Below, piece by piece: positions 1 to 31,554 of a DNA stretch of 64,000 bases. Source of the stretch: Herpetosiphonaceae bacterium (GTDB lineage Bacteria > Chloroflexota > Chloroflexia > Chloroflexales > Herpetosiphonaceae). Within the stretch, counting starts at the first letter, position 1. The number at the start of each line of letters is the position of its first letter. Under the pieces are notes generated by a model. The model was not told where the DNA came from. It saw nothing but the letters and a program-made list of their open reading frames with translations, and ran no database searches. A program made the position numbers and the translations under genes. The DNA is taken from the NCBI GenBank assembly GCA_026003835.1, contig BPHZ01000011.1, positions 3,743 through 67,742 of the forward strand. Direction: 5' to 3'.

Positions 1-2768
<2,768 letters not shown>

Positions 2769-5323: not shown

Positions 5324-6268
5324 GTGAGCAAAGAACGTATCCTCGTTGTTGAAGATCAGCCCGATATTTCGGGCTTGCTCAAAATCTACTTTACATCTCA
5401 GGGCTATGACGTGATGACAGCAAGCCGGGGGCAGCAGGCCCTTGAGATCTGTCGTAAGACGCCGCCCAACCTGGCTCTACTCGATATCAACCTGCCGGAT
5501 ATGCTTGGCTACGATATCGGGCGTGAGCTGCGCGCCAGCCCTCGCACACGCCATATTCCGATTATTTTCCTCACGGCTCTCGGCGAGAAGGCTAATATGA
5601 TGACGGCCTTCCAGGAGATTAATGCCGATGATTATATCGTCAAGCCGTTCGATATCGAGGTGGTCGCTCAAAAGGTGCGTATTCACCTGGACCGCGCACG
5701 CGTGAAGAATCAGGCACACCCTGTCACCAATCTGCCGACCGCAGAGCTTATCGGCGACGAACTGCGCCGCCTCCTCTCCAGCGAGGGGTGGGCGCTGGCG
5801 ATGGCCCATATCAATGGCTTCGACACCTTTACCCAGGTCTACGGTTCGGTCGTCGGCGAGGATGTGCTTAAGTTCACGGCTCTGCTGATCAATGAGGTGC
5901 TCAATGAGCTTGGCAGCCCGCAGGATTTCGTCGGGCAGCTGGTTACCGGGCCGGATTTTGTGCTCATCTCAACGCCCGAACGGGTAAAGGCGATCTGCGA
6001 GCGCGTCGCCGAGCGTTTCGACCAGGAGATCGGTCTGCACTATTCTTACCGCGACCGCAAGAATGGCTATATCACGGTTACTGCCGACGATGGATCGACC
6101 CGCCAGGTGCCTCTGATGAGTCTCTCGATCGGTGTCTTGACCAGCGATGATGGACCGTTCTATGATATTCGTGAGCTCAGCGAGACGGCTGAAAGTGTGC
6201 GCCAGGCCGCCCGCTCTCAGGCTCACGGCGATGGCGCGCGGAGCGCCATCAAGTACGGACGAAGCTAA
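5324..6268 (+). CDS. response regulator: receiver domain + degenerate (probably inactive) GGDEF-like domain
   Basis: GTG 5324 lies 7 nt after AGGAGG (5311-5316), in frame with ORF-track 5096..6268. REC motifs: ILVVEDQPD, LALLDINLPDM, IVKPF. The C-terminal domain follows the GGDEF fold (HPVTNLPTA, HINGFDTFTQVYGSVVGEDVL, MSLSIGV), but the GGDEF motif itself reads TGPDF and the DxD metal site reads HIN. Confidence 0.8.
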   Translation: MSKERILVVEDQPDISGLLKIYFTSQGYDVMTASRGQQALEICRKTPPNLALLDINLPDMLGYDIGRELRASPRTRHIPIIFLTALGEKANMMTAFQEINADDYIVKPFDIEVVAQKVRIHLDRARVKNQAHPVTNLPTAELIGDELRRLLSSEGWALAMAHINGFDTFTQVYGSVVGEDVLKFTALLINEVLNELGSPQDFVGQLVTGPDFVLISTPERVKAICERVAERFDQEIGLHYSYRDRKNGYITVTADDGSTRQVPLMSLSIGVLTSDDGPFYDIRELSETAESVRQAARSQAHGDGARSAIKYGRS

Positions 6269-6277
6269 AACTCAGGG

Positions 6278-9200
6278 TTGCAGAAGGCCGGCCAAACGAC
6301 CATGACAGTTTCTCCGACGCATTCCGCCTGGCAGGCTGTCGCCACACTCGCCGCTCTGACCTATACGCCGATAGGACAGGCCGAGAGCCTGGGTGACCGG
6401 CTGACGGCGATTCTTTCCAGCGAGCTGCCATACCGCCAGGGAGCTATTCTCCTCGGGCAGGGAGCGCCACTCCATGTCGCCGGATCCTGGGGCCTGACGG
6501 ACGCCGATCTTGAGAGCCTGCGCCGTCATCCTCCAGTGCGTTCGGGCAACGGCCTCCCGGCGCCAACCCAGGAGGGCTGGCAGGGCATCGAGCTCCAGGC
6601 CCTGGGAGAAACCATTGGTGTGCTCGCCCTGCGCGGGCTCGACGATACAGCTTTGCCCGAGGATCTGCTCCTGGCGTTGGCAGGCCAGGTCGCGCTCCTC
6701 TGCTTTGCCGGCTATGTGGCGGAGCACGAACCGGAAGCCACCCAGCAGGTCGATCCGGTACAGGTAGCGGCGACGTTGGCAGGTCCGCTCTACGAACTCG
6801 CCGGGCAGACCGATTTCCGTCGCTTCCTTCGTGAGCTTGCGCTCCAGGCCGCCAAACTCCCCGATGTCGTAGGGGCAGCTGTCTATCTTGCCAGTGAAGA
6901 ACGAATGAGCCTGGCGGCCTCCGCCTCTGAAGATAATGCTACCTTTCCAGGCGAACTGCAGCAGAGCGAGACTGAGATCCTGAATAGCCCGGAGTCCGGC
7001 CCGCATCCTGCATATGTGCTCTTGTCCCTGCAGGATGGCAAACAGCGGATCGGCACGCTCCTGCTCTATCACACCGGCTCTACCGCCATCTCCCAGCGTA
7101 CCCGGCAGGCCTATGATCTGTTCGCCGTCCAGGCATCGTTAGCCCTACGCACTGCCAGGACCTTCGAAAATCAGCGCACCCAGGGACGCGATCTGTTTAT
7201 CCTCTATGAGAACAGCCGCATCCTCAATAGCACACTTGATCTTGGCATCATCCTCGACCGGCTCTGCGAGAATGTTGCCTTCGCTCTGGCAAGCGACCAC
7301 TGTATTGTTATGTTGTGGGATCAAGAGCGCGGCGAGATGGAGTATGCCAGCGCCTTCGATGCCATCAATCCACTTCAACTCGGCAGCTTCCCGGTCGGCG
7401 AACGTTTCAAGCCGGCGCCTGACTCCGTCGCCGGTCTGGTGATGCGCACTGGCCGGCCAATTGCTATCGACAATCTTTCTAGTGATCCGCGCATCGGCGA
7501 CGACCGGCAGCGGCTGCTCAGCTTCGGCTTTAAGAGCGTCCTCTGCGCCCCGATGATCCAGCAAGATAACCTGCTTGGTATTCTGCTGGTCAGCTCGAAT
7601 AATCCACGTTCCTATAGCTCTGTAGAGATGACCCTGATCCAGACTCTCGCCGGCCAGGCAGCCATTGCCCTCGGCTATGCACGGGTCATCGAAGAGGAAC
7701 GCCAGCGCTCCACTGAGATGGAGCTGCTGCACACCCTCAGCCGCGAGCTTAGCAGCGGGCTGAGCGTCCAGGAGGCGGCGGAGGCGATTGTACGTGTCCT
7801 CGAGCGCATCAAACCGGGAGCTGACTTCGAGATCTGCGTCTACGATAGCTCGGCGCAGCTGCTGCGGACGGTTGTGCGCAGCGCCAGTGCCGTCGATATC
7901 GGGTCGACCACAGGCGTCTATACACTTGATGAAGGCTTTAGCGGCTGGCTGGCCCGCCATCGTCGACCTCTGCGTATCGACGATATCAGCGGGCAGCGCA
8001 GCGTTCGCCCGGCCAATGCTGAGGCCCTGAAAAAGCGCCGTATCCGCTCCTTCCTCGGCGTTCCGCTGCTCGTCGGCGACGAACTCGTCGGGACGATCGA
8101 GCTAGCCTCGCCCAAGACCAATGCCTTTGGCCCCGATGATGAACTGCTGCTGATGATTATCGCCGGCCAAGCGGCACAGGCGATTCAGAACGCCATTAGC
8201 TTTGAGACGGCCGACGAGGTGCTGCGCAAGCGCATCCGCGAGCTAACAGCGCTCCAACTCATTAGCCGTAAGCTGACCTCTACGCTCTACCTTGACGATA
8301 TTCTTGCGGCAGTGTTGGCTGAGGCTCAAGAAGCAACCGCCGCTCCCGCGGGGATGGTCATTCTACGCGATGAGGTCGCTAAGTTTGCTGAGGATCTAGT
8401 GGGCAGCAAGTTCGCCGGCCCCGCTGAGAGTCGCTCACTGCAAATGGATGAGACCGGTACGCTGCGGCTGGTGGCGGTTGAGGGCTACAGCGATGAAGAG
8501 CAGCGGCTGCTGCTGGCAAGCCTGCGCGACCCCAACGGTCCTTTTAGCCTGGCCATCGCTGAGGGCAAAGCACAGATCGTGGATGACTTATCTGAGGAGA
8601 TAGCGTCGCTGCAGCTCTCGATGCAGTCGCTGCTGCTCGTGCCCGTCATCTACGAGGAGCGGATCGCAGGCATCATCATCCTCGGACGCAACAGTACCAG
8701 AGCCTTCAATCGCGATGCCCTTGAGTTTGTCAGAGCATTGGCCGACCAGGCCGCGCTGGCGATTGGTAATGCGCAGCACTTCGCCGAGCTGGAGCGACAG
8801 CGTGAGCTGCTCCAGCGCCGCGCTAGCTTGCTCAACGAGGTGCTGGAGATCGGCAATGCCTTGCGCGCCGACCGTGAGCTGCCCGACCTGCTCGAGCAGG
8901 TGGCGTTCAGCGTCGCCGATGCCGCCGGCTTCCGCTCGGTCGTCTTTATCCTCACCGATCGCGAGCGGCCAGACCATATGCGCGTTGTCGCCGCCGCTGG
9001 CGTGCCAATTGCAAAGCTCAACCGCATGCGCAGCATACGTATCTCCATCGCTGCGCTGCATCCGTTCCTTGATCAAAGATATCGACTGGGCCGGGCCTTC
9101 TTCATCCCCAAGGAGGAGGCCCCCCAGGATTCAGAGATCGACGAAATCCTTGACTGGCAGGCGCAGACCAGTGACACCATGCCCGGCGGATGGCAGCCGG

Positions 9201-10801
9201 GCGACCGTTTCCTGGTGCCGCTCTACAGCACTGAGCGCGAGATGATCGGCCTGATGGCGATCGACGATCCCTTCGACCGCCGGCGGCCCAACCGCCGTAC
9301 AGCCGAGATCCTGGAGATCTTCGCCAACCAGGCGGCTATCGCTATCGAGAATGCCTGGCTCTTCCGGGATCGTGAGCGGCAGATCCGTGGGCTTGAGGCG
9401 ATCCGGCGCATTGGGCAGGTGACCAGCTCAACGCTGGATATGGATAGCCTGCTGCAAGGCGTGTACGAGGTGCTCACTGACTTCCTGCCCGTCGACAGCT
9501 TTATCCTGCATGTGGTCGACACCGAGCGTAAACTGATCACTCGCAGCCTGATCATCGACCTCGGCGAGGTATTGACCGTCATGCAGGAGAAGCCGGTTCC
9601 CCCGAAGTCGCTGACTGAGTGGCTGCTGACCAATCACCAGCCACTGCTCTTCGGCGATATCAACCAGGAGATCAGCGCCTACCCAGATATCACCCCGAAC
9701 ACGATTGGCAGCGGCGATAATGCCCCTTCCTGGATGGGCGTTCCGTTGCTAGCCCGGGACGATCAGCCCATCGGCGTGATGGCGATCCAGAACTATCGGC
9801 CCCACGCCTTCAGCCAGCGCGATCTTGATTTTATGCTCAGCGTAGCGCATCAGGTTTCGCTGGGCCTGCAGAACGCGCGTCTCTTTGCTGAGACAGAGGG
9901 TCATCTGCGCCAGATTGCCGAAGAGGCGGAACGTCTGACGACGATCAACCGTGTCTCCAGCCTGGCCGCCTCGACCCTGGATTTCCGCGCGCTCTGCCAG
10001 CTTGCGGTCGATGAGATGGCACGCGCAACTGAGGCTGATCAGTCGCGGCTTTTGCAGTTCGATCGCAGCCAGAGTATCGCCATCTGCCGCGCTGAGTACC
10101 ATCACACCGGGATGGTCGATACCCTCACCCTCCCCCTCGATACGAATCCCACCATCGCCTGGCTCGATCGCGAGCAGCGCCCGCTGCGTGTCGAGAACGT
10201 CGCTACCGACCCGGTTGTGGCACCGATCAAAGAAACCTTGCTCGCGTTTGGCATTCGGAGCATGATGATCGTGCCCCTGGTTGTAAAAGGTGAGGTGATC
10301 GGATCGGTGGGGTTGGATCGCCTCAACGAGGATCGTCCCTTCAGCGAGCGGGATGCCGAGGACATGCCAGACCATCGCCCAACCAGATCAGCACGGCGAT
10401 GGAGAATTCGCGCCTGTTCCGCGAGCGTGAAGCGCCGCATCCGCGAGCTGGATGCGATCAATCGTATCAGCCAGGCAGGTGACCTCGACGCTCGACCTGC
10501 AGTCGGTGCTGGAGACGCCTGCACCACGGCCTGGGCGAGATTATCGACGTCAGTACCTCGTTCATCGGCCTCTATGACGCTAAAACCAACATTCTCACCT
10601 ATCCGCTGTGTTTCGACAACGGCAAGCCCATCCACTTTACACCTGCTGAGGTTGGCGAGCACAACATCAACGGCTGGGTCATCCGCAACCGCCAGCCGCT
10701 GCTGGCCGGCACCGCTGAGGAGGCGATCCAGTATCGCGGCGGTGTACTGCCCCTCGATACCCGCATTGGCCGGGAAGATCAGATCGAACAGTCATACCTG
10801 A
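6278..10801 (+). CDS. multi-GAF sensor histidine kinase, N-terminal fragment (authentic frame lost near 10367)
   Basis: 1507-aa ORF-track product with at least seven tandem GAF modules. Each module ends in a linker of the type (G/N)QAAxAIxNAxLF. The last ~430 nt are out-of-frame read-through; the real continuation (TIANQISTAMENSRLFRERE...) is in other frames. Confidence 0.85.
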   Translation: MQKAGQTTMTVSPTHSAWQAVATLAALTYTPIGQAESLGDRLTAILSSELPYRQGAILLGQGAPLHVAGSWGLTDADLESLRRHPPVRSGNGLPAPTQEGWQGIELQALGETIGVLALRGLDDTALPEDLLLALAGQVALLCFAGYVAEHEPEATQQVDPVQVAATLAGPLYELAGQTDFRRFLRELALQAAKLPDVVGAAVYLASEERMSLAASASEDNATFPGELQQSETEILNSPESGPHPAYVLLSLQDGKQRIGTLLLYHTGSTAISQRTRQAYDLFAVQASLALRTARTFENQRTQGRDLFILYENSRILNSTLDLGIILDRLCENVAFALASDHCIVMLWDQERGEMEYASAFDAINPLQLGSFPVGERFKPAPDSVAGLVMRTGRPIAIDNLSSDPRIGDDRQRLLSFGFKSVLCAPMIQQDNLLGILLVSSNNPRSYSSVEMTLIQTLAGQAAIALGYARVIEEERQRSTEMELLHTLSRELSSGLSVQEAAEAIVRVLERIKPGADFEICVYDSSAQLLRTVVRSASAVDIGSTTGVYTLDEGFSGWLARHRRPLRIDDISGQRSVRPANAEALKKRRIRSFLGVPLLVGDELVGTIELASPKTNAFGPDDELLLMIIAGQAAQAIQNAISFETADEVLRKRIRELTALQLISRKLTSTLYLDDILAAVLAEAQEATAAPAGMVILRDEVAKFAEDLVGSKFAGPAESRSLQMDETGTLRLVAVEGYSDEEQRLLLASLRDPNGPFSLAIAEGKAQIVDDLSEEIASLQLSMQSLLLVPVIYEERIAGIIILGRNSTRAFNRDALEFVRALADQAALAIGNAQHFAELERQRELLQRRASLLNEVLEIGNALRADRELPDLLEQVAFSVADAAGFRSVVFILTDRERPDHMRVVAAAGVPIAKLNRMRSIRISIAALHPFLDQRYRLGRAFFIPKEEAPQDSEIDEILDWQAQTSDTMPGGWQPGDRFLVPLYSTEREMIGLMAIDDPFDRRRPNRRTAEILEIFANQAAIAIENAWLFRDRERQIRGLEAIRRIGQVTSSTLDMDSLLQGVYEVLTDFLPVDSFILHVVDTERKLITRSLIIDLGEVLTVMQEKPVPPKSLTEWLLTNHQPLLFGDINQEISAYPDITPNTIGSGDNAPSWMGVPLLARDDQPIGVMAIQNYRPHAFSQRDLDFMLSVAHQVSLGLQNARLFAETEGHLRQIAEEAERLTTINRVSSLAASTLDFRALCQLAVDEMARATEADQSRLLQFDRSQSIAICRAEYHHTGMVDTLTLPLDTNPTIAWLDREQRPLRVENVATDPVVAPIKETLLAFGIRSMMIVPLVVKGEVIGSVGLDRLNEDRPFSERDAEDMPDHRPTRSARRWRIRACSASVKRRIRELDAINRISQAGDLDARPAVGAGDACTTAWARLSTSVPRSSASMTLKPTFSPIRCVSTTASPSTLHLLRLASTTSTAGSSATASRCWPAPLRRRSSIAAVYCPSIPALAGKIRSNSHT

Positions 10802-11454
10802 TTGTGCCGATCATCGCCGGCGACGAGGTGCTGGGCGTCATCAATATCCAGAGCTACGAGCGCTACGCCTACAGCCAGCAGGATCTCAACTTTGTCTCGA
10901 CAGTGGCAGGACAGGCGGCAGCCGCTATCGCCAATGCGCGCCTGTTCCGCGAGCGTGAGCGCCGCATCCGCGAGCTGGACGCGATCAATCGTATTAGCCG
11001 GGCAGTAACCTCGACGCTCGACCTGCAGTCGGTGCTGGAGCGCCTGCACCACGGCCTGGGCGAGATTATCGACGTCAGCACCTCATTCATCGGCCTCTAT
11101 GACGCTCGCACCAACATCTTGAGCTACCCAATCTGCTACGATAGTGGACAGCCAGTCCACTTCGATCCAATCCCATTACGCGGCGGCATTACGCGCTGGG
11201 GCATCATCAACCGCCAGCCGGTTCTCGTTGATAGCGCTGAGGAGGCCGCATCCTACGAGCAGGATGCGCAGATTGCCCGCGTCGGTATCGAGGGTAAAGT
11301 CGAACAGTCCTTCCTGGTCGTACCGATCATCGCTGGCGACGAGGTGCTGGGCGTCATCAATATCCAGAGCTACGAGCGCAACGCCTTCACGCATCACGAT
11401 CTAAACTTCGTCTCAACTGTGGCCGGGCAGGCCGCAGCCGCCATCGCTAATGCC
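10411..11454 (+). repeat. tandem duplication of a whole GAF module (units 10411-10938 and 10939-11454) with near-identical ends and diverged core
   Basis: RLFRERERRIRELDAINRIS..VTSTLDLQSVLERLHHGLGEIIDVSTSFIGLYDA and VPIIAGDEVLGVINIQSYER...DLNFVSTVAGQAAAAIANARLF occur twice. The DNA at these ends is nearly identical, while the ~80 central codons differ at most positions. Confidence 0.9.
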
Positions 11455-12843
11455 CGTCTCTTCAGCGAGCGCGACCGTTCAATTCAGGAGCTCAGCACGC
11501 TGAATAAGATCGGCCAGGCGCTGGGCTCGACCGTCCGCTTCGAAGATCTGCTGCAAGTCATCTACGAGCAGACCAGTCTGCTGCTGGATACAACCAATTT
11601 CTACATGGCGCTCTATGACGAACGCCGCTATCAGGTCTCGTATCCGTTCTTCTATGAGCACGGCCAGCCGATCTCGATCCCATCCCATCGTTTGGGCAAA
11701 GGCCTGACCGATTATGTTATTTCAACCCGCCAGCCACTGCTAATTACCGAGCGCTTCGAGGAGTTCTTACACGAACATAACATTCAGCTGATCGACGAGC
11801 CGGCGCGCTCGTGGTTGGGTGTGCCGATGATCGCTGCCGATAAAGTTGTCGGCGTCATTGGTATCCAGGACTATGAGCACGAGCACGCCTACGGCGAAAA
11901 CGAGGTCCGGCTGCTATCGACGATCGCAAACCAGGCAGCGCAAGCGCTGGAGAACGCCCGCCTCTTCACCGAGTCGCGCGAGAGCGTCCGCGAGCTGTCA
12001 ACGCTCTCTGAGACGAGCGTCTCGCTTGCCGGGACCCTTGAGATCGAGGAGATTCTCACCATCGGCGCGAGCAGCGCGATGGAGCTTGCCCGCTCCGATG
12101 TCGGCGGAATCTTCCTGATCGAGGAAAACGAGGGAAGCCTGGAGCTTGGCGAGGCAATCTTCCTCGACCAACTCCGGATGGAGATCCCGCCGGATGAGGT
12201 ACGCCTAAAGCTTTTGCGTACACTGGACCGGCTCGATCCGCTGCGTGAGGGACAGCCGGTGCGAGTCGCCGATGCACAGGATGATCCTTCGCTGATAGGG
12301 CTGGCACGCAAGCTTAAGGTACGCGGCCTGGCAATCCTGCCAATCCTCAAGGAGCAGCGCCTGGGTGGGGCTATGCTGATCGGCGCTATCCAGCCTCGCG
12401 AGTTCGAGGAGCGGGCTATCGCCAGCCTCAACATCCTTGGCGCGCAGGTAGGCCAGGCTATCGAGAATGCGCAGCTCTTCGCGCAGATTCGACGCTTCAA
12501 TAGCGAGCTGGAGGAGATGGTGGCGCAGCGCACGCAGGCGCTGGCAGAAGCCAACGCTATGCTCACGATCGAGAAGGAACGCATCGAGGCGCTGCATACC
12601 ATCGCCACTGAGCTCAGCGCCACGCTCGAACTCAACGAGGTGCTGTTGCGTACGCTCGACCTGGCTTCGAAAGCGCTCAATGTCAACCATGGCTCAATCG
12701 TGCTCCATGACGCTGAGAACGACAAATTCATCTGTCGGGCGGTGCTGGGGAGGAACGGTAGAGCCGAAGCGGCGGACTACGAAGTACCCCCTGGAGAAAG
12801 GGCGAGGGCTGGCGAGCTGGATCATCAACCACCCCGAGGCTGA
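10804..12843 (+). CDS. multi-GAF sensor histidine kinase, middle fragment
   Basis: 679-aa ORF-track product with four further GAF modules and linkers ANARLFRERE, ANARLFSERD, ENARLFTESR, ENAQLFAQIR. The frame becomes non-authentic after ~12750 (run gggg at 12747-12750). Confidence 0.85.
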   Translation: MPIIAGDEVLGVINIQSYERYAYSQQDLNFVSTVAGQAAAAIANARLFRERERRIRELDAINRISRAVTSTLDLQSVLERLHHGLGEIIDVSTSFIGLYDARTNILSYPICYDSGQPVHFDPIPLRGGITRWGIINRQPVLVDSAEEAASYEQDAQIARVGIEGKVEQSFLVVPIIAGDEVLGVINIQSYERNAFTHHDLNFVSTVAGQAAAAIANARLFSERDRSIQELSTLNKIGQALGSTVRFEDLLQVIYEQTSLLLDTTNFYMALYDERRYQVSYPFFYEHGQPISIPSHRLGKGLTDYVISTRQPLLITERFEEFLHEHNIQLIDEPARSWLGVPMIAADKVVGVIGIQDYEHEHAYGENEVRLLSTIANQAAQALENARLFTESRESVRELSTLSETSVSLAGTLEIEEILTIGASSAMELARSDVGGIFLIEENEGSLELGEAIFLDQLRMEIPPDEVRLKLLRTLDRLDPLREGQPVRVADAQDDPSLIGLARKLKVRGLAILPILKEQRLGGAMLIGAIQPREFEERAIASLNILGAQVGQAIENAQLFAQIRRFNSELEEMVAQRTQALAEANAMLTIEKERIEALHTIATELSATLELNEVLLRTLDLASKALNVNHGSIVLHDAENDKFICRAVLGRNGRAEAADYEVPPGERARAGELDHQPPRG

Positions 12844-14242
12844 AGGGGCGATCATCCATGACACGCTGGAAGACGAGCGCTGGGTGCCGCTGCCGGGCCG
12901 CAGTGAAGGAGCACGCGCGGTCATCGCCGTTCCGCTGATGTCGTCGGATACCGTTGTCGGCGTGCTGATGTTTACCAGCAGCCAGCCAGGATCCTTCACC
13001 TCCGACCATCTGCGCTTCCTGCGCACGATTGGCACTGAGGTCTCCGCAGCGTTGCATAACGCCGAGCTGTACAAGCTGGTGCTTGACAGCGCCGACCGCC
13101 TTTCGGCTGCGCTTATGCAGCAGAAGGAGGAGGCCGGCAAGCGCGAGGCTATCCTCCGCTCTGTCTCGGAAGGCGTCATGGTGCTCGATCAATCCGGCAC
13201 GATCATTCTCTACAATCCGGCGGCAGAGCGTGTGCTCCAGGTGCCCGCAGACCAGGTCATCGGGCAGACGCTGCAAATCTTCGCCCGCTATCAAGGCGAT
13301 AGCGAGAGCGAGGGCGGCGCGGATCGCGCGCTGCTGATCTATACTGGTCTTCAGGAGGGATTGCGCGCCGTTGACAGCAACGATCAGGTCTACTCGTCGA
13401 CAATTAGCCTTGGGGGGCAGACGATCAACGCCAGTTTTGCGCCAGTTACCAGCGCCGACGGCAGCAGGCTCGGCGTCGTCGTGGTGCTGCGCGATATCAC
13501 CCGTGAGATCGAGGCCGATCGCGCGAAGCGCGACTTTATCTCCATGGTCTCGCACGAACTGCGCACGCCGCTGACACCAATCCGCGGCTATGTCGATCTG
13601 ATGCTGCTTGGCGCAGTGGGCGAGATCACCGATACCCAGCGCGACTGTCTCAATGCTATCAAGAAGAATATGCTACGTATGCTTTCGCTGGTCGAAGACT
13701 TGCTGGAGATCGGCCGTATTGAAGCGGGCAAGATCAAGCTCGACATCACGCTCCTAGATATCGCAAGCTCGATCAATGAGATCGTTGGCATGCTGAAGCC
13801 AATGATCGATTCCAAAGAGATGAATCTGACGATCGAGATCCCGCCTGACTTGCCGCAAATTGAGGCTGACAGCAAGCGTATCGGGCAGGTGCTTACTAAT
13901 ATGATCTCAAACGCGATCAAATACACCTTTGCGCGCGGGAATATCTGGGTGCGCGCCTTCACACGAGATGACGATTTTGTCCAGATCGAAGTGCAAGATA
14001 CTGGTGTCGGCATCAAGCCGGAGGATATGAAGAAGCTCTTTACACGCTTCTTCCGCACAGATAACCCTCTGCGCGATGAGGCGGGCGGCACGGGCCTGGG
14101 CCTCTCAATCGCCAAATCATTCGTCGAGATGCATGGGGGCGAGATGTGGGTTGAGAGTGAGCTTAATGTCGGCAGCACCTTTAAAGTCGCGCTGCCTATT
14201 CGCCAGCCGCGTCCTGAGCTCGACGCTCCGCAGGATCCCTAG
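12467..14242 (+). CDS. multi-GAF sensor histidine kinase, C-terminal fragment (last GAF, PAS, HisKA, HATPase_c)
   Basis: This frame is authentic from ~12750: YPLEKGRGLASWIINH...VGVLMF (GAF), SEGVMVLDQSGTIILYNPAAERVL (PAS), H-box MVSHELRTPLTPI, and ATP-lid DTGVGI...GGTGLGLSIAKSFVEMHGG. The frame equals that of 6278. Confidence 0.9.
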   Translation: MRSSSRRFDASIASWRRWWRSARRRWQKPTLCSRSRRNASRRCIPSPLSSAPRSNSTRCCCVRSTWLRKRSMSTMAQSCSMTLRTTNSSVGRCWGGTVEPKRRTTKYPLEKGRGLASWIINHPEAEGAIIHDTLEDERWVPLPGRSEGARAVIAVPLMSSDTVVGVLMFTSSQPGSFTSDHLRFLRTIGTEVSAALHNAELYKLVLDSADRLSAALMQQKEEAGKREAILRSVSEGVMVLDQSGTIILYNPAAERVLQVPADQVIGQTLQIFARYQGDSESEGGADRALLIYTGLQEGLRAVDSNDQVYSSTISLGGQTINASFAPVTSADGSRLGVVVVLRDITREIEADRAKRDFISMVSHELRTPLTPIRGYVDLMLLGAVGEITDTQRDCLNAIKKNMLRMLSLVEDLLEIGRIEAGKIKLDITLLDIASSINEIVGMLKPMIDSKEMNLTIEIPPDLPQIEADSKRIGQVLTNMISNAIKYTFARGNIWVRAFTRDDDFVQIEVQDTGVGIKPEDMKKLFTRFFRTDNPLRDEAGGTGLGLSIAKSFVEMHGGEMWVESELNVGSTFKVALPIRQPRPELDAPQDP

Positions 14243-30119: not shown

Positions 30120-31034
30120 ATGACTGTGTCCAAGCTGATGTCGATGCAAGAGGCGATTGGTCGTTTTGTCCACGATGGAATGGCGGTAGCGATGAGCCTC
30201 GCGCTTGAACCGCTCATCCCCTTCGCCGCCGGCCATGAGATCATTCGCCAGCGGCGGCGCGATCTCACCCTGATCGGGCCAATCTCCGATTGTCTGTTCG
30301 ATCAGCTCATCGGCGCGGGCTGCGTGCGGCGCGTCATCGCAGCATGGGTCGGCAATGTTAGCGGCGGGCTTGGACATGCCTACCGCCGTGCCGCCGAACA
30401 GGGATTGCCCCAACCGCTTGAGATCCACGATCATTCCAACTTTACCATTGCGCTTGCGCTGCGCGCCGGGGCGCTGGGCGTCCCCTATATCCCGGCATAC
30501 ACACTCTTGGGAAGCGACCTGCCACGCTCAAACCCTGGACTGGTGCAGGCCGAGTACGAAGGCCGGCCGATCCTGCACGTCAAAGCGGTCACTCCCGATG
30601 TCGCCATCGTGCAGGTACAGCGCAGCGATGAAGATGGCAACGCCCACGCCTGGGGCAATCTCGGCATCAGCCTTGAAGCCGGTCTCGCCTCACGCGATAT
30701 CATTATCGTCGCCGAGGAGATTGTGCCGCGAGACGTGATCCTCAGCGATCCCAATCGCGTCATCGCGCCCTCGTTCAAAGTTCGAGCTGTCGTCCATGAG
30801 CCGGGCGGAGCGCATCCCTCGCCGGTCCAGGGCTACTACAACCGCGATCATGAGTTTTTCCACGCGTACCACAGCGCAACGCGGACGCTCGAAGGGATGC
30901 AGTCCTGGCTGCAGGAGTGGGTCTACGGTATCCCGGATCGCGCCGCCTATCTGCGCAAGCTGGGCGCCGAGCGCTGGACGAGCCTCCAGCGACGCACAAG
31001 CCTGCTGGCGGCGCCGGTGGACTATGGGTACTAG
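30120..31034 (+). CDS. CoA-transferase family I, subunit A-like (glutaconate-CoA-transferase GctA-like)
   Basis: SKLMSMQEAIGRFVHDGMAVAMS..., PYIPAYTLLGSDL and DVAIVQVQRSDEDGNA are typical of the alpha subunit. GTG 30126 (8 nt after GGAGG) is an equally plausible start. No beta subunit lies adjacent. Confidence 0.75.
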   Translation: MTVSKLMSMQEAIGRFVHDGMAVAMSLALEPLIPFAAGHEIIRQRRRDLTLIGPISDCLFDQLIGAGCVRRVIAAWVGNVSGGLGHAYRRAAEQGLPQPLEIHDHSNFTIALALRAGALGVPYIPAYTLLGSDLPRSNPGLVQAEYEGRPILHVKAVTPDVAIVQVQRSDEDGNAHAWGNLGISLEAGLASRDIIIVAEEIVPRDVILSDPNRVIAPSFKVRAVVHEPGGAHPSPVQGYYNRDHEFFHAYHSATRTLEGMQSWLQEWVYGIPDRAAYLRKLGAERWTSLQRRTSLLAAPVDYGY

Positions 31035-31038
31035 GCGG

Positions 31039-31554
31039 ATGCGCTCATTACGTCTTTTGCTCTCCCTAATATCCCTTGTGCTGCTGGCAAGCTGTGGCGG
31101 CGAGGGGACGATATCAACTCCACAGCCCCAGCGGAGCCGCCTGCCGACGGTTACGCCGATGGTCCTTGAGCAACAGACTGCAACCGGCTCCACCGTGGTC
31201 GCCGCGACGCCCAGAGCGACACCGAGCCCTGCGAATCAGACGGCAACCCCAACTACGGCCGCTGTGTCCGCTCTGCCAAGGCTGGTCTTTGTCGATGCGG
31301 TCTGGTGAGCGATCTGCGCAGAAATGCGGCTCGCCGTGAGCGAGCTCCAGCAAGAGTATCCGGGCCAGTTTGAGCTTGTGCGGCTTGACTTTGACAAGAC
31401 GGAAGACCGCCAGGCTGCCGAGACCTATGGGGCGCTCTTCCACCCCGCGTTCATCTTTATCGACCGCCGTGGAACGATCCATGCGCGGATCATCGGGGGG
31501 ACAACCAAAGCACGTCTTGCTCAGAGGCTCCAGGAGATCATTGCGGAGCCGTAG
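31039..31554 (+). CDS. thioredoxin-fold lipoprotein with in-frame TGA at the active-site Cys position (candidate selenoprotein, or nonsense pseudogene)
   Basis: ATG 31039 to TAG 31554 in one frame, with a single TGA at 31306-31308. Lipobox LLASC. Thioredoxin alignment: LVFVDAVW-[TGA]-AIC-AEM...EYPGQFELVRLDFD...YGALFHPAFIFIDRRG...IGG. ORF-track pieces 30796..31308 and 31324..31554 share this frame. Confidence 0.6.
31328..31346 (+). promoter_or_regulatory. SECIS-like hairpin 20 nt downstream of the in-frame UGA
   Basis: G-GCUCGC (31328-31334), loop CGUGA, GCGAGC-U (31340-31346). The apical loop contains GU and starts 26 nt after the UGA. Confidence 0.35.

Follow-up and report, generated by a model that had tools for sequence, protein, structure and literature searches.

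The 64,000-nucleotide stretch of a Herpetosiphonaceae genome analysed here (contig BPHZ01000011.1 of assembly GCA_026003835.1, positions 3,743 to 67,742 of the forward strand; hereafter, the window) carries on its plus strand two open reading frames (ORFs), 30796..31308 and 31324..31554, which lie in one frame and are interrupted only by the TGA at 31306-31308. An earlier reading of the letters alone (the sequence-only reading) had noticed these two pieces and their single interruption, both of which were confirmed in the sequence, and had proposed that the TGA encodes selenocysteine (Sec, U in motifs) in a U-x-x-C thioredoxin-fold lipoprotein. This proposal is now supported by a TGA conserved among homologues, by Cys at the same place in other relatives and by a conserved, covarying hairpin. 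Judging from these comparisons, the locus is very probably a genuine selenoprotein gene, encoding an exported, lipid-anchored oxidoreductase of the thioredoxin fold in which the UGA at 31306-31308 specifies Sec.

Structure of the gene

The elements recognized in and around the gene, with the basis for each, are the following.

31024..31554 (+), full gene of the predicted thioredoxin-like selenolipoprotein; one frame, broken only by the TGA at 31306; stop TAG at 31552-31554
31039..31095 (+), lipoprotein signal peptide with a positive n-region, the core LLLSLISLVLL and the lipobox L-A-S-C (Cys codon 31093-31095), read from the sequence
31096..31275 (+), linker rich in Pro, Thr and Ala that spans some 60 residues from the lipid anchor to the catalytic domain, from the composition of the translation
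31276..31551 (+), thioredoxin-fold domain spanning the TGA, from PF00085, PF13098 and a family profile
31306..31308 (+), UGA, candidate Sec codon at the nucleophilic position of the U-A-I-C motif, from the TGA column in homologues, Cys in the Cys-type relatives and two samples
31315..31317 (+), TGC, resolving Cys of U-x-x-C, from the sequence and the profile alignment with thioredoxins
31324..31554 (+), 76-amino-acid fragment GIV98564.1, "hypothetical protein", by exact look-up; the only annotated part in the public record
31328..31346 (+), hairpin resembling a selenocysteine insertion sequence (SECIS), by folding; 5' arm 31328-31334, loop CGUGA 31335-31339, 3' arm 31340-31346
31441..31446 (+), His-Pro, the cis-proline of the thioredoxin fold with the His ahead of it that is conserved in the family, from alignments

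With the TGA read through, the product has 171 amino acids from the ATG at 31039 and 176 from the ATG at 31024. From the former, the translation begins with MRSLRLLLSLISLVLLASC, continues through the linker and ..RLVFVDAVW-[TGA]-AIC-AEM.., and ends in ..IIAEP. The sequence-only reading had described a 171-amino-acid product starting at 31039; its lipoprotein-thioredoxin composition stands, whereas its start probably does not. In strain ERR14373513, which differs from the window at two positions within this gene, one of the differences (G for T at window position 31040) turns the ATG at 31039 into AGG. The ATG at 31024 (MGTRRMRSL..), which lies within the last codons of the upstream CoA-transferase gene (stop at 31032-34), is intact in both strains and, because of the AGG, is regarded as the more likely start. 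As had been expected of automated gene callers, the public record, that of the MAG (metagenome-assembled genome) Herpetosiphonaceae bacterium KatS3mg057, contains the 76-amino-acid tail GIV98564.1 only, so that what appears to be a real gene is recorded merely as a "hypothetical protein".

The end of the signal peptide, ..LVLLASC, fits the lipobox pattern [LVI][ASTVI][GAS]C on inspection, and an equivalent lipobox (e.g., LSGC, LGGC, LVAC and LAAC) exists in every full-length Chloroflexota homologue. The linkers of these homologues are similar in character, with sequences unrelated to that of the window linker.

In a Pfam scan of the read-through product, for which Cys was substituted for the stop, residues 82-165 matched PF00085 (Thioredoxin) with 32.7 bits (cutoff 23.5, E = 7.9e-8), and PF13098 was just over its threshold (27.3 bits, cutoff 27). 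Because the PF00085 match crosses the stop, the two ORF pieces represent the halves of one domain. The profile of the family matched solved thioredoxins with E = 1.8e-17, and in the profile-to-PDB alignment the two Cys of CGPC correspond to the stop and to the Cys after it, respectively, so that W-U-A-I-C, following beta-1, aligns with W-C-G-P-C. The proline of H-P-A-F is invariant in our alignments A4 and A5 and corresponds to that of I-P-T in the cis-proline loop of the solved thioredoxins. This alignment agrees with the earlier placement of the TGA at the nucleophilic Cys, with the resolving Cys and the cis-proline retained. His precedes the cis-proline in 12 of the 13 lipoprotein forms with a TGA (11 of the 12 in A4, plus L010, which lies outside A4).

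Conservation of the in-frame TGA

The window is not the only source of this sequence. The corresponding contig from DRR290133 is identical to it, and that from ERR14373513 differs at 43 of 12,636 positions (0.3%) and retains the TGA, the frame and the hairpin. Since the latter represents a diverged strain from an independent sample, the base-call or assembly error that had been named as an alternative is excluded.

A full HMMER scan, in which the 81 residues after the stop were compared with 1.84 billion representative proteins, gave 51 matches. About 19 of them were proteins of 69-77 residues starting exactly at the Met after the redox motif, and the others were full-length proteins with W-C-x-x-C. 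When the full-length protein, with Cys in place of U, was used in a word-indexed search, there were no matches, not even to its own database fragment. The DNA of the homologues was collected as the loci of the fragments, together with loci from pattern scans of genomes and metagenomes. An in-frame TGA is located 15 nt upstream of the fragment Met in every homologue with readable DNA. All 14 further distinct homologues of the truncated type have TGA in the same column, which, including the window, makes 16 loci and 15 distinct sequences. These TGA forms (L004, L005 (= L006 and L007), L008-L015, L020, L022, L023, L029 and L030, the last two being near-identical Anaerosomatales proteins) come from Chloroflexota metagenome-assembled genomes (MAGs), Anaerosomatales MAGs and metagenomes; L008-L015 are from eight Chloroflexota MAGs, which belong to Dehalococcoidia, Chloroflexales, Chloroflexia and another Herpetosiphonaceae. 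They share 25-41% identity with the window protein. A lipoprotein signal, a linker and a beta-strand precede the TGA in the members from Chloroflexota and metagenomes (L004, L005, L008-L015, L020 and L022), and a rhodanese domain precedes it in L023, L029 and L030. A sixteenth family member, P0031, shows the same 15-nt geometry of the gene call, as judged from gene positions only.

All nine of the Cys-type relatives have Cys in the TGA column of the alignment. The orthologue comparison that the sequence-only reading had called for thus came out in its favour: as is expected of selenoproteins, the in-frame UGA is aligned with Cys in homologues, and it is conserved among divergent homologues with the ORF intact on both sides. 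The family profile, searched against 5.8 billion proteins, gave 96 matches, 95 of which have 71-77 amino acids; the sole longer one is a Cys-type protein of 150 amino acids. Nearly the whole of the close family is therefore of the TGA type and mis-annotated.

A global reassignment of TGA was also considered and rejected, because TGA is the normal stop of 11 of the 40 Pfam-supported ORFs in the window.

A conserved hairpin downstream of the UGA

The hairpin that had been proposed downstream of the TGA, at 31328-31346 with the loop CGUGA and a spacing of 26 nt from the UGA to the loop, was reproduced on folding in all three respects, and has seven pairs, one of which is G-U. Every one of the 16 TGA forms has a hairpin of 5-7 bp at this register. 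From an ungapped alignment of 14 Sec forms (A3), RNAalifold derived de novo a single structure, a 5-bp stem (columns 37-41 / 47-51) with a 5-nt loop, which is the window hairpin. In this stem 68 of the 70 cells are paired, and compensatory changes are found at three of the five pairs. A 6-pair structure has 88% of its cells paired in A3, versus 12-49% after a shift of the 3' arm by 1-3 columns, and none of 500 column shuffles matched the observed pairing or covariation. The check on conservation, therefore, found the register kept among relatives and the pairing maintained by compensatory changes.

The informative changes in the hairpin fall at synonymous sites. Where column 40 is A (Ile/Thr) it pairs with a following codon ending in U, and where it is G (Val/Ala) with one ending in C, in 14 of 14 sequences; its partner is column 48, which distinguishes the synonymous AAU and AAC. 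All 14 sequences of A3 have C as the free third base of the Pro (or Leu) codon, and 13 have G at the end of the Gly or Glu codon. The loop is CGUGA in 12 of the 14, and CGUGG and GGUCG in the others, with a G in every case, so that each carries, right after the UGA, a stem-loop whose small apical loop includes G. The stem of the window, GGCUCGC/GCGAGCU, is unlike the common CCCGU/ACGGG and yet pairs fully, which suggests selection for pairing on this lineage. Among three Cys forms used as controls, the hairpin is missing in two (two of the five pairs form in L025, and one of the five in L026), while the third, L024, retains the stem with a loop, CAUAA, that lacks G.

Weighing of the alternatives

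Several observations weigh against a selenoprotein. The window hairpin is not more stable than shuffled sequences (z = -0.51 for 45 nt and +0.70 for 76 nt), and Rfam, at both the gathering cutoff and E<=10, contained no SECIS family matching it. The conserved core of the hairpin is short (5 bp) and overlaps the conserved peptide P-[VI]-V-N-G, because of which part of its conservation is attributable to the protein level, and the covariation comes from a small sample of 14 sequences, some of them related. No component of the Sec machinery was found nearby either: ARAGORN detected no tRNA-Sec in the 64-kb window or in 12 fetched loci, tblastn with E. coli SelA and SelB over the window and the fetched loci gave no matches, and Pfam scans of the same sequences were without SelA, SelB and SelD. 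A search of a large database with E. coli SelA listed only Enterobacteriaceae and was hence unable to reveal the gene of this MAG. These searches covered the window and the fetched loci, so that the insertion of Sec and the presence of its machinery in this organism are inferred. Sec decoding is documented in the phylum, as Dehalogenimonas has selC, selA, selB and selD (PMC4918011).

The sole match that Rfam did return, to narK, is on the other strand and was dismissed as a chance match.

In addition, the window (60.5% G+C) contains about 50 sites where TGA splits two open stretches of the same frame, each of at least 60 codons. Only that at 31306 has a redox motif beside the TGA, as judged from the flanking residues, two-sided homology having been checked for none of the others. 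As the local features of the hairpin and the split ORF are weak against chance, their significance comes only from homology and comparison.

The only serious rival to a functional selenoprotein gene is a relic of one, in a lineage that has lost or lacks the Sec machinery, in which case translation would now end at the TGA and the gene would have lost its function. The absence of Sec-machinery genes from the window favours such a relic, as does the uvrA gene in the window, which looks frameshifted and indicates that disrupted genes or assembly indels occur here. However, 64 kb is a small part of a genome, and the absence of sel genes there says little. Moreover, the 81 codons past the TGA remain intact and are still recognized as thioredoxin, the lineage-specific stem GGCUCGC/GCGAGCU is fully paired, and two diverged strains retain the frame, the TGA and the hairpin. 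We regard a relic as improbable.

Even less probable, in our estimation, is read-through independent of Sec, in which a near-cognate tRNA-Trp or tRNA-Cys would read the UGA, giving a Trp or Cys product, and the hairpin would merely slow termination. Bacterial stop-codon read-through stimulated by a downstream structure exists, and no gene of the Sec machinery was found in the window or the fetched loci. On the other hand, a nucleophile is needed at this position, where Trp would inactivate the enzyme, and the codons TGC and TGT, which more distant relatives use, are one mutation away from the TGA that is kept in 15 distinct sequences. Four members of the family have two TGAs three codons apart, which would be very inefficient to pass without dedicated decoding. 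The loop also retains a G at the spacing typical of SelB-binding elements, according to the spacing rule of the bSECISearch model.

A third alternative is a Cys-type thioredoxin-like gene whose TGA is a nonsense mutation of this copy alone, or an artefact of sequencing or assembly. A change from TGC or TGT would be a single substitution, and MAG assemblies do contain errors. The TGA is, however, also present in an independent sample and strain, and each of the 14 further distinct homologues, which belong to different classes and phyla, has it too. The nonsense mutation raised by the sequence-only reading is thus refuted by the comparative data, and the chance of either event is negligible.

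Proposed decoding and function

If the gene is a functional selenoprotein gene, the hairpin at 31328-31346, which lies inside the coding sequence, would act as a bacterial SECIS during translation. It would recruit SelB-GTP-Sec-tRNA(Sec), and the ribosome would insert Sec instead of terminating. This mechanism is proposed because the established bacterial pathway, in which SelA, SelB, SelC and SelD act together with a SECIS that directly follows the UGA (PMC9312934), works in this way. The protein would then be exported and lipid-anchored at the outer face of the cytoplasmic membrane. There, Sec90 may attack the disulfide of a substrate, or a target that is oxidised or metal-bound, and the resulting selenenylsulfide would be resolved by Cys93, as in classical thioredoxins.

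Comparison with known families

No NCBIfam model reached its cutoff for any of the six family members scanned. With individual models, of none of which it is a member, the window protein scored as follows.

TrxA, TIGR01068: 30.4 bits, cutoff 96.8
ResA, NF002854: 21.4 bits, cutoff 170
TlpA, NF047696: 18.7 bits, cutoff 230
DsbE, TIGR00385: 14.4 bits, cutoff 123
Rcas_1661 selenolipoprotein, NF041057: 14.3 bits, cutoff 190, match limited to residues 9-75

Sec-containing thioredoxins (PF00085, UxxC) are listed in inventories of prokaryotic selenoproteins (PMC13188914, PMC9312934 and PMC1088965). The window protein shares with them the fold, the (predicted) Sec as the first residue of U-x-x-C, the resolving Cys and the cis-proline, and its gene likewise has a SECIS-like hairpin directly 3' of the UGA within the ORF. 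Unlike cytoplasmic TrxA, it has a lipoprotein signal, followed by a linker of about 60 residues. In contrast to the GP dipeptide of TrxA, the residues between U and C are variable in the family of the window protein (AI, PI, AS, PY, SS, AP and others), and the His before the cis-proline and the UxxU motif of some members also distinguish this family from Sec-thioredoxins.

Like the UxxC selenoproteins of PF13098 and like TlpA, ResA and DsbE, the window protein is a thioredoxin-like protein predicted to be exported and membrane-tethered, and the UxxC motif is common to it and the PF13098 thiol:disulfide interchange selenoproteins. However, its domain is of the short classical thioredoxin type (about 92 residues), without the insertions of TlpA and ResA. 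The "Rcas_1661 family thioredoxin-like (seleno)lipoprotein" ('DsbG-like') of NF041057 resembles the window protein in being a lipoprotein, in its thioredoxin-like domain and in its UxxC site for Sec. This model is of the Thioredoxin_4/DsbG type and has about 247 positions, unlike the window protein, which is not a member because its score is far below the cutoff and its match covers only the signal and the linker. We take the name Rcas_1661 to be a Roseiflexus locus tag, and it is from the name that we judge NF041057 to occur in Chloroflexota.

UxxU motifs have precedents as well: a Prx-like thiol:disulfide oxidoreductase is known with UxxC or UxxU, and a putative metal-binding protein with UxxU (PMC13188914). 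Two UGAs two codons apart, as in these selenoproteins, are also found in the relatives L011, L012, L014 and L020, while the window protein itself is UxxC. The UxxU proteins of that inventory (PMC13188914) are AhpC/TSA- or HMA-like, whereas the UxxU relatives of the window protein are of the PF00085/PF13098 thioredoxin type.

No full-length, Sec-annotated version of the family turned up in the collection of 5.8 billion proteins. Because of this, and because no curated model fits, we place the window gene, from its sequence, among the known UxxC thioredoxin-fold selenoproteins, as a new subfamily and a member so far without annotation.

Among bacterial selenoproteins, this UxxC thioredoxin-fold type is the most common. 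The present result is thus a correction of annotation, with no new mechanism, and does not overturn current understanding. The correction extends beyond this genome: for at least about 95 clusters of relatives, the records contain only a fragment of about 75 amino acids, under names such as "thioredoxin-related" or "negative regulator of GroEL". In genomes of Chloroflexota and Coriobacteriia, the annotation would be put right by a dedicated model that carries a Sec flag. The gene implies the use of selenium, in an extracytoplasmic selenoenzyme, in a hot-spring lineage of Herpetosiphonaceae. With its compact, conserved SECIS (loop CGUGA) and its natural UxxU variants on one hairpin, the family may also be useful for working out the spacing rules of Sec insertion.

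UxxU relatives and possible metal handling

Two in-frame TGAs two codons apart, followed by a single hairpin, exist in L011, L012, L014 (~5983-5994) and L020 (639-650), where the motifs are EN-U-AP-U-TQM, VG-U-KP-U-AQM, QN-U-NS-U-TQM and VP-U-PQ-U-DQM. The clade to which three of the UxxU members belong adjoins genes for a BlaI/CopY-type repressor (PF03965), an M56 sensor peptidase and DUF305, and also for an HMA-domain P-type ATPase, a Redoxin/SCO1-like protein and an ArsP-type permease. These neighbours, of the metal-homeostasis type, occupy the following regions.

L011, 4654-7269
L013, 3981-7167
L012, 6708-9152
L014, 2719-5514

P0031, a more distant member, adjoins a CsoR-type repressor (PF02583). 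The UxxU motif, the metal-type neighbours and the His before the cis-proline together hint at a copper or metal role for the UxxU clade. The Chloroflexota lipoprotein branch as a whole might then be an extracytoplasmic, selenium-based protein for handling metal (copper), with a logic like that of Sco, and not a general disulfide reductase. Sec/Cys-x-x-Cys/Sec and the His before the cis-proline could serve as ligands, or the protein could reduce Cu(II) or metal-oxidised thiols. The window gene, however, has no metal-related neighbours, and we consider this reading of the branch rather unlikely.

Gene neighbourhood and other observations

In the window, the selenolipoprotein gene is located downstream of paa genes and a CoA-transferase gene, and is followed by a convergent PRC-barrel gene and a gene for HMG-CoA lyase. 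No neighbourhood common to all family loci was found among the loci compared, the metal-related context recurring in the UxxU clade only, and no ccdA/dsbD or cytochrome-c maturation genes are adjacent.

A second architecture was recognized in the Sec-thioredoxin family, in which a membrane-anchored rhodanese is fused to the thioredoxin domain (L023, 3-548; L029 and L030, 9464-10225). These genes have the motif W/T-U-P-T-C and the hairpin loop GGUCG. The architecture exists in Anaerosomatales (Coriobacteriia) MAGs, in which such a gene is annotated as two. The UxxU member L012 and a Cys-type CPVC paralogue, L024, exist in the same Chloroflexia MAG (DATAKM01, GCA_036261665.1). Because the mRNA of the L024 paralogue keeps the stem, with the loop CAUAA, this pair looks like a recent Sec/Cys conversion at the level of sequence.

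Another candidate selenoprotein was noticed at L026, 908-1486, where two AhpC/TSA calls form one gene with an in-frame TGA (..AWTPV-U-SQEIP), that is, a putative peroxiredoxin selenoprotein of the T-x-x-U type. It is located just upstream of two Cys-type thioredoxin genes, among them P0027, a Cys relative of the window protein.

Two further regions of the window, both on the plus strand, deserve mention. At 22-2768, a uvrA-like gene is apparently split by a frameshift, either through an assembly indel or as a pseudogene: the ORF 22..1791 contains the UvrA_inter and UvrA_DNA-bind domains, and an overlapping ORF in another frame, 1764..2768, begins with VRGARANNLKNL..GVSGSGKST, the C-terminal ATPase motif of UvrA. 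At 6278-14242 there is a run of very large GAF signalling genes, which encode a protein of 1507 amino acids with at least six GAF domains, a GAF protein of 679 amino acids and a GAF-PAS histidine kinase, the ORF of the last overlapping the preceding one by about 375 nt in another frame.

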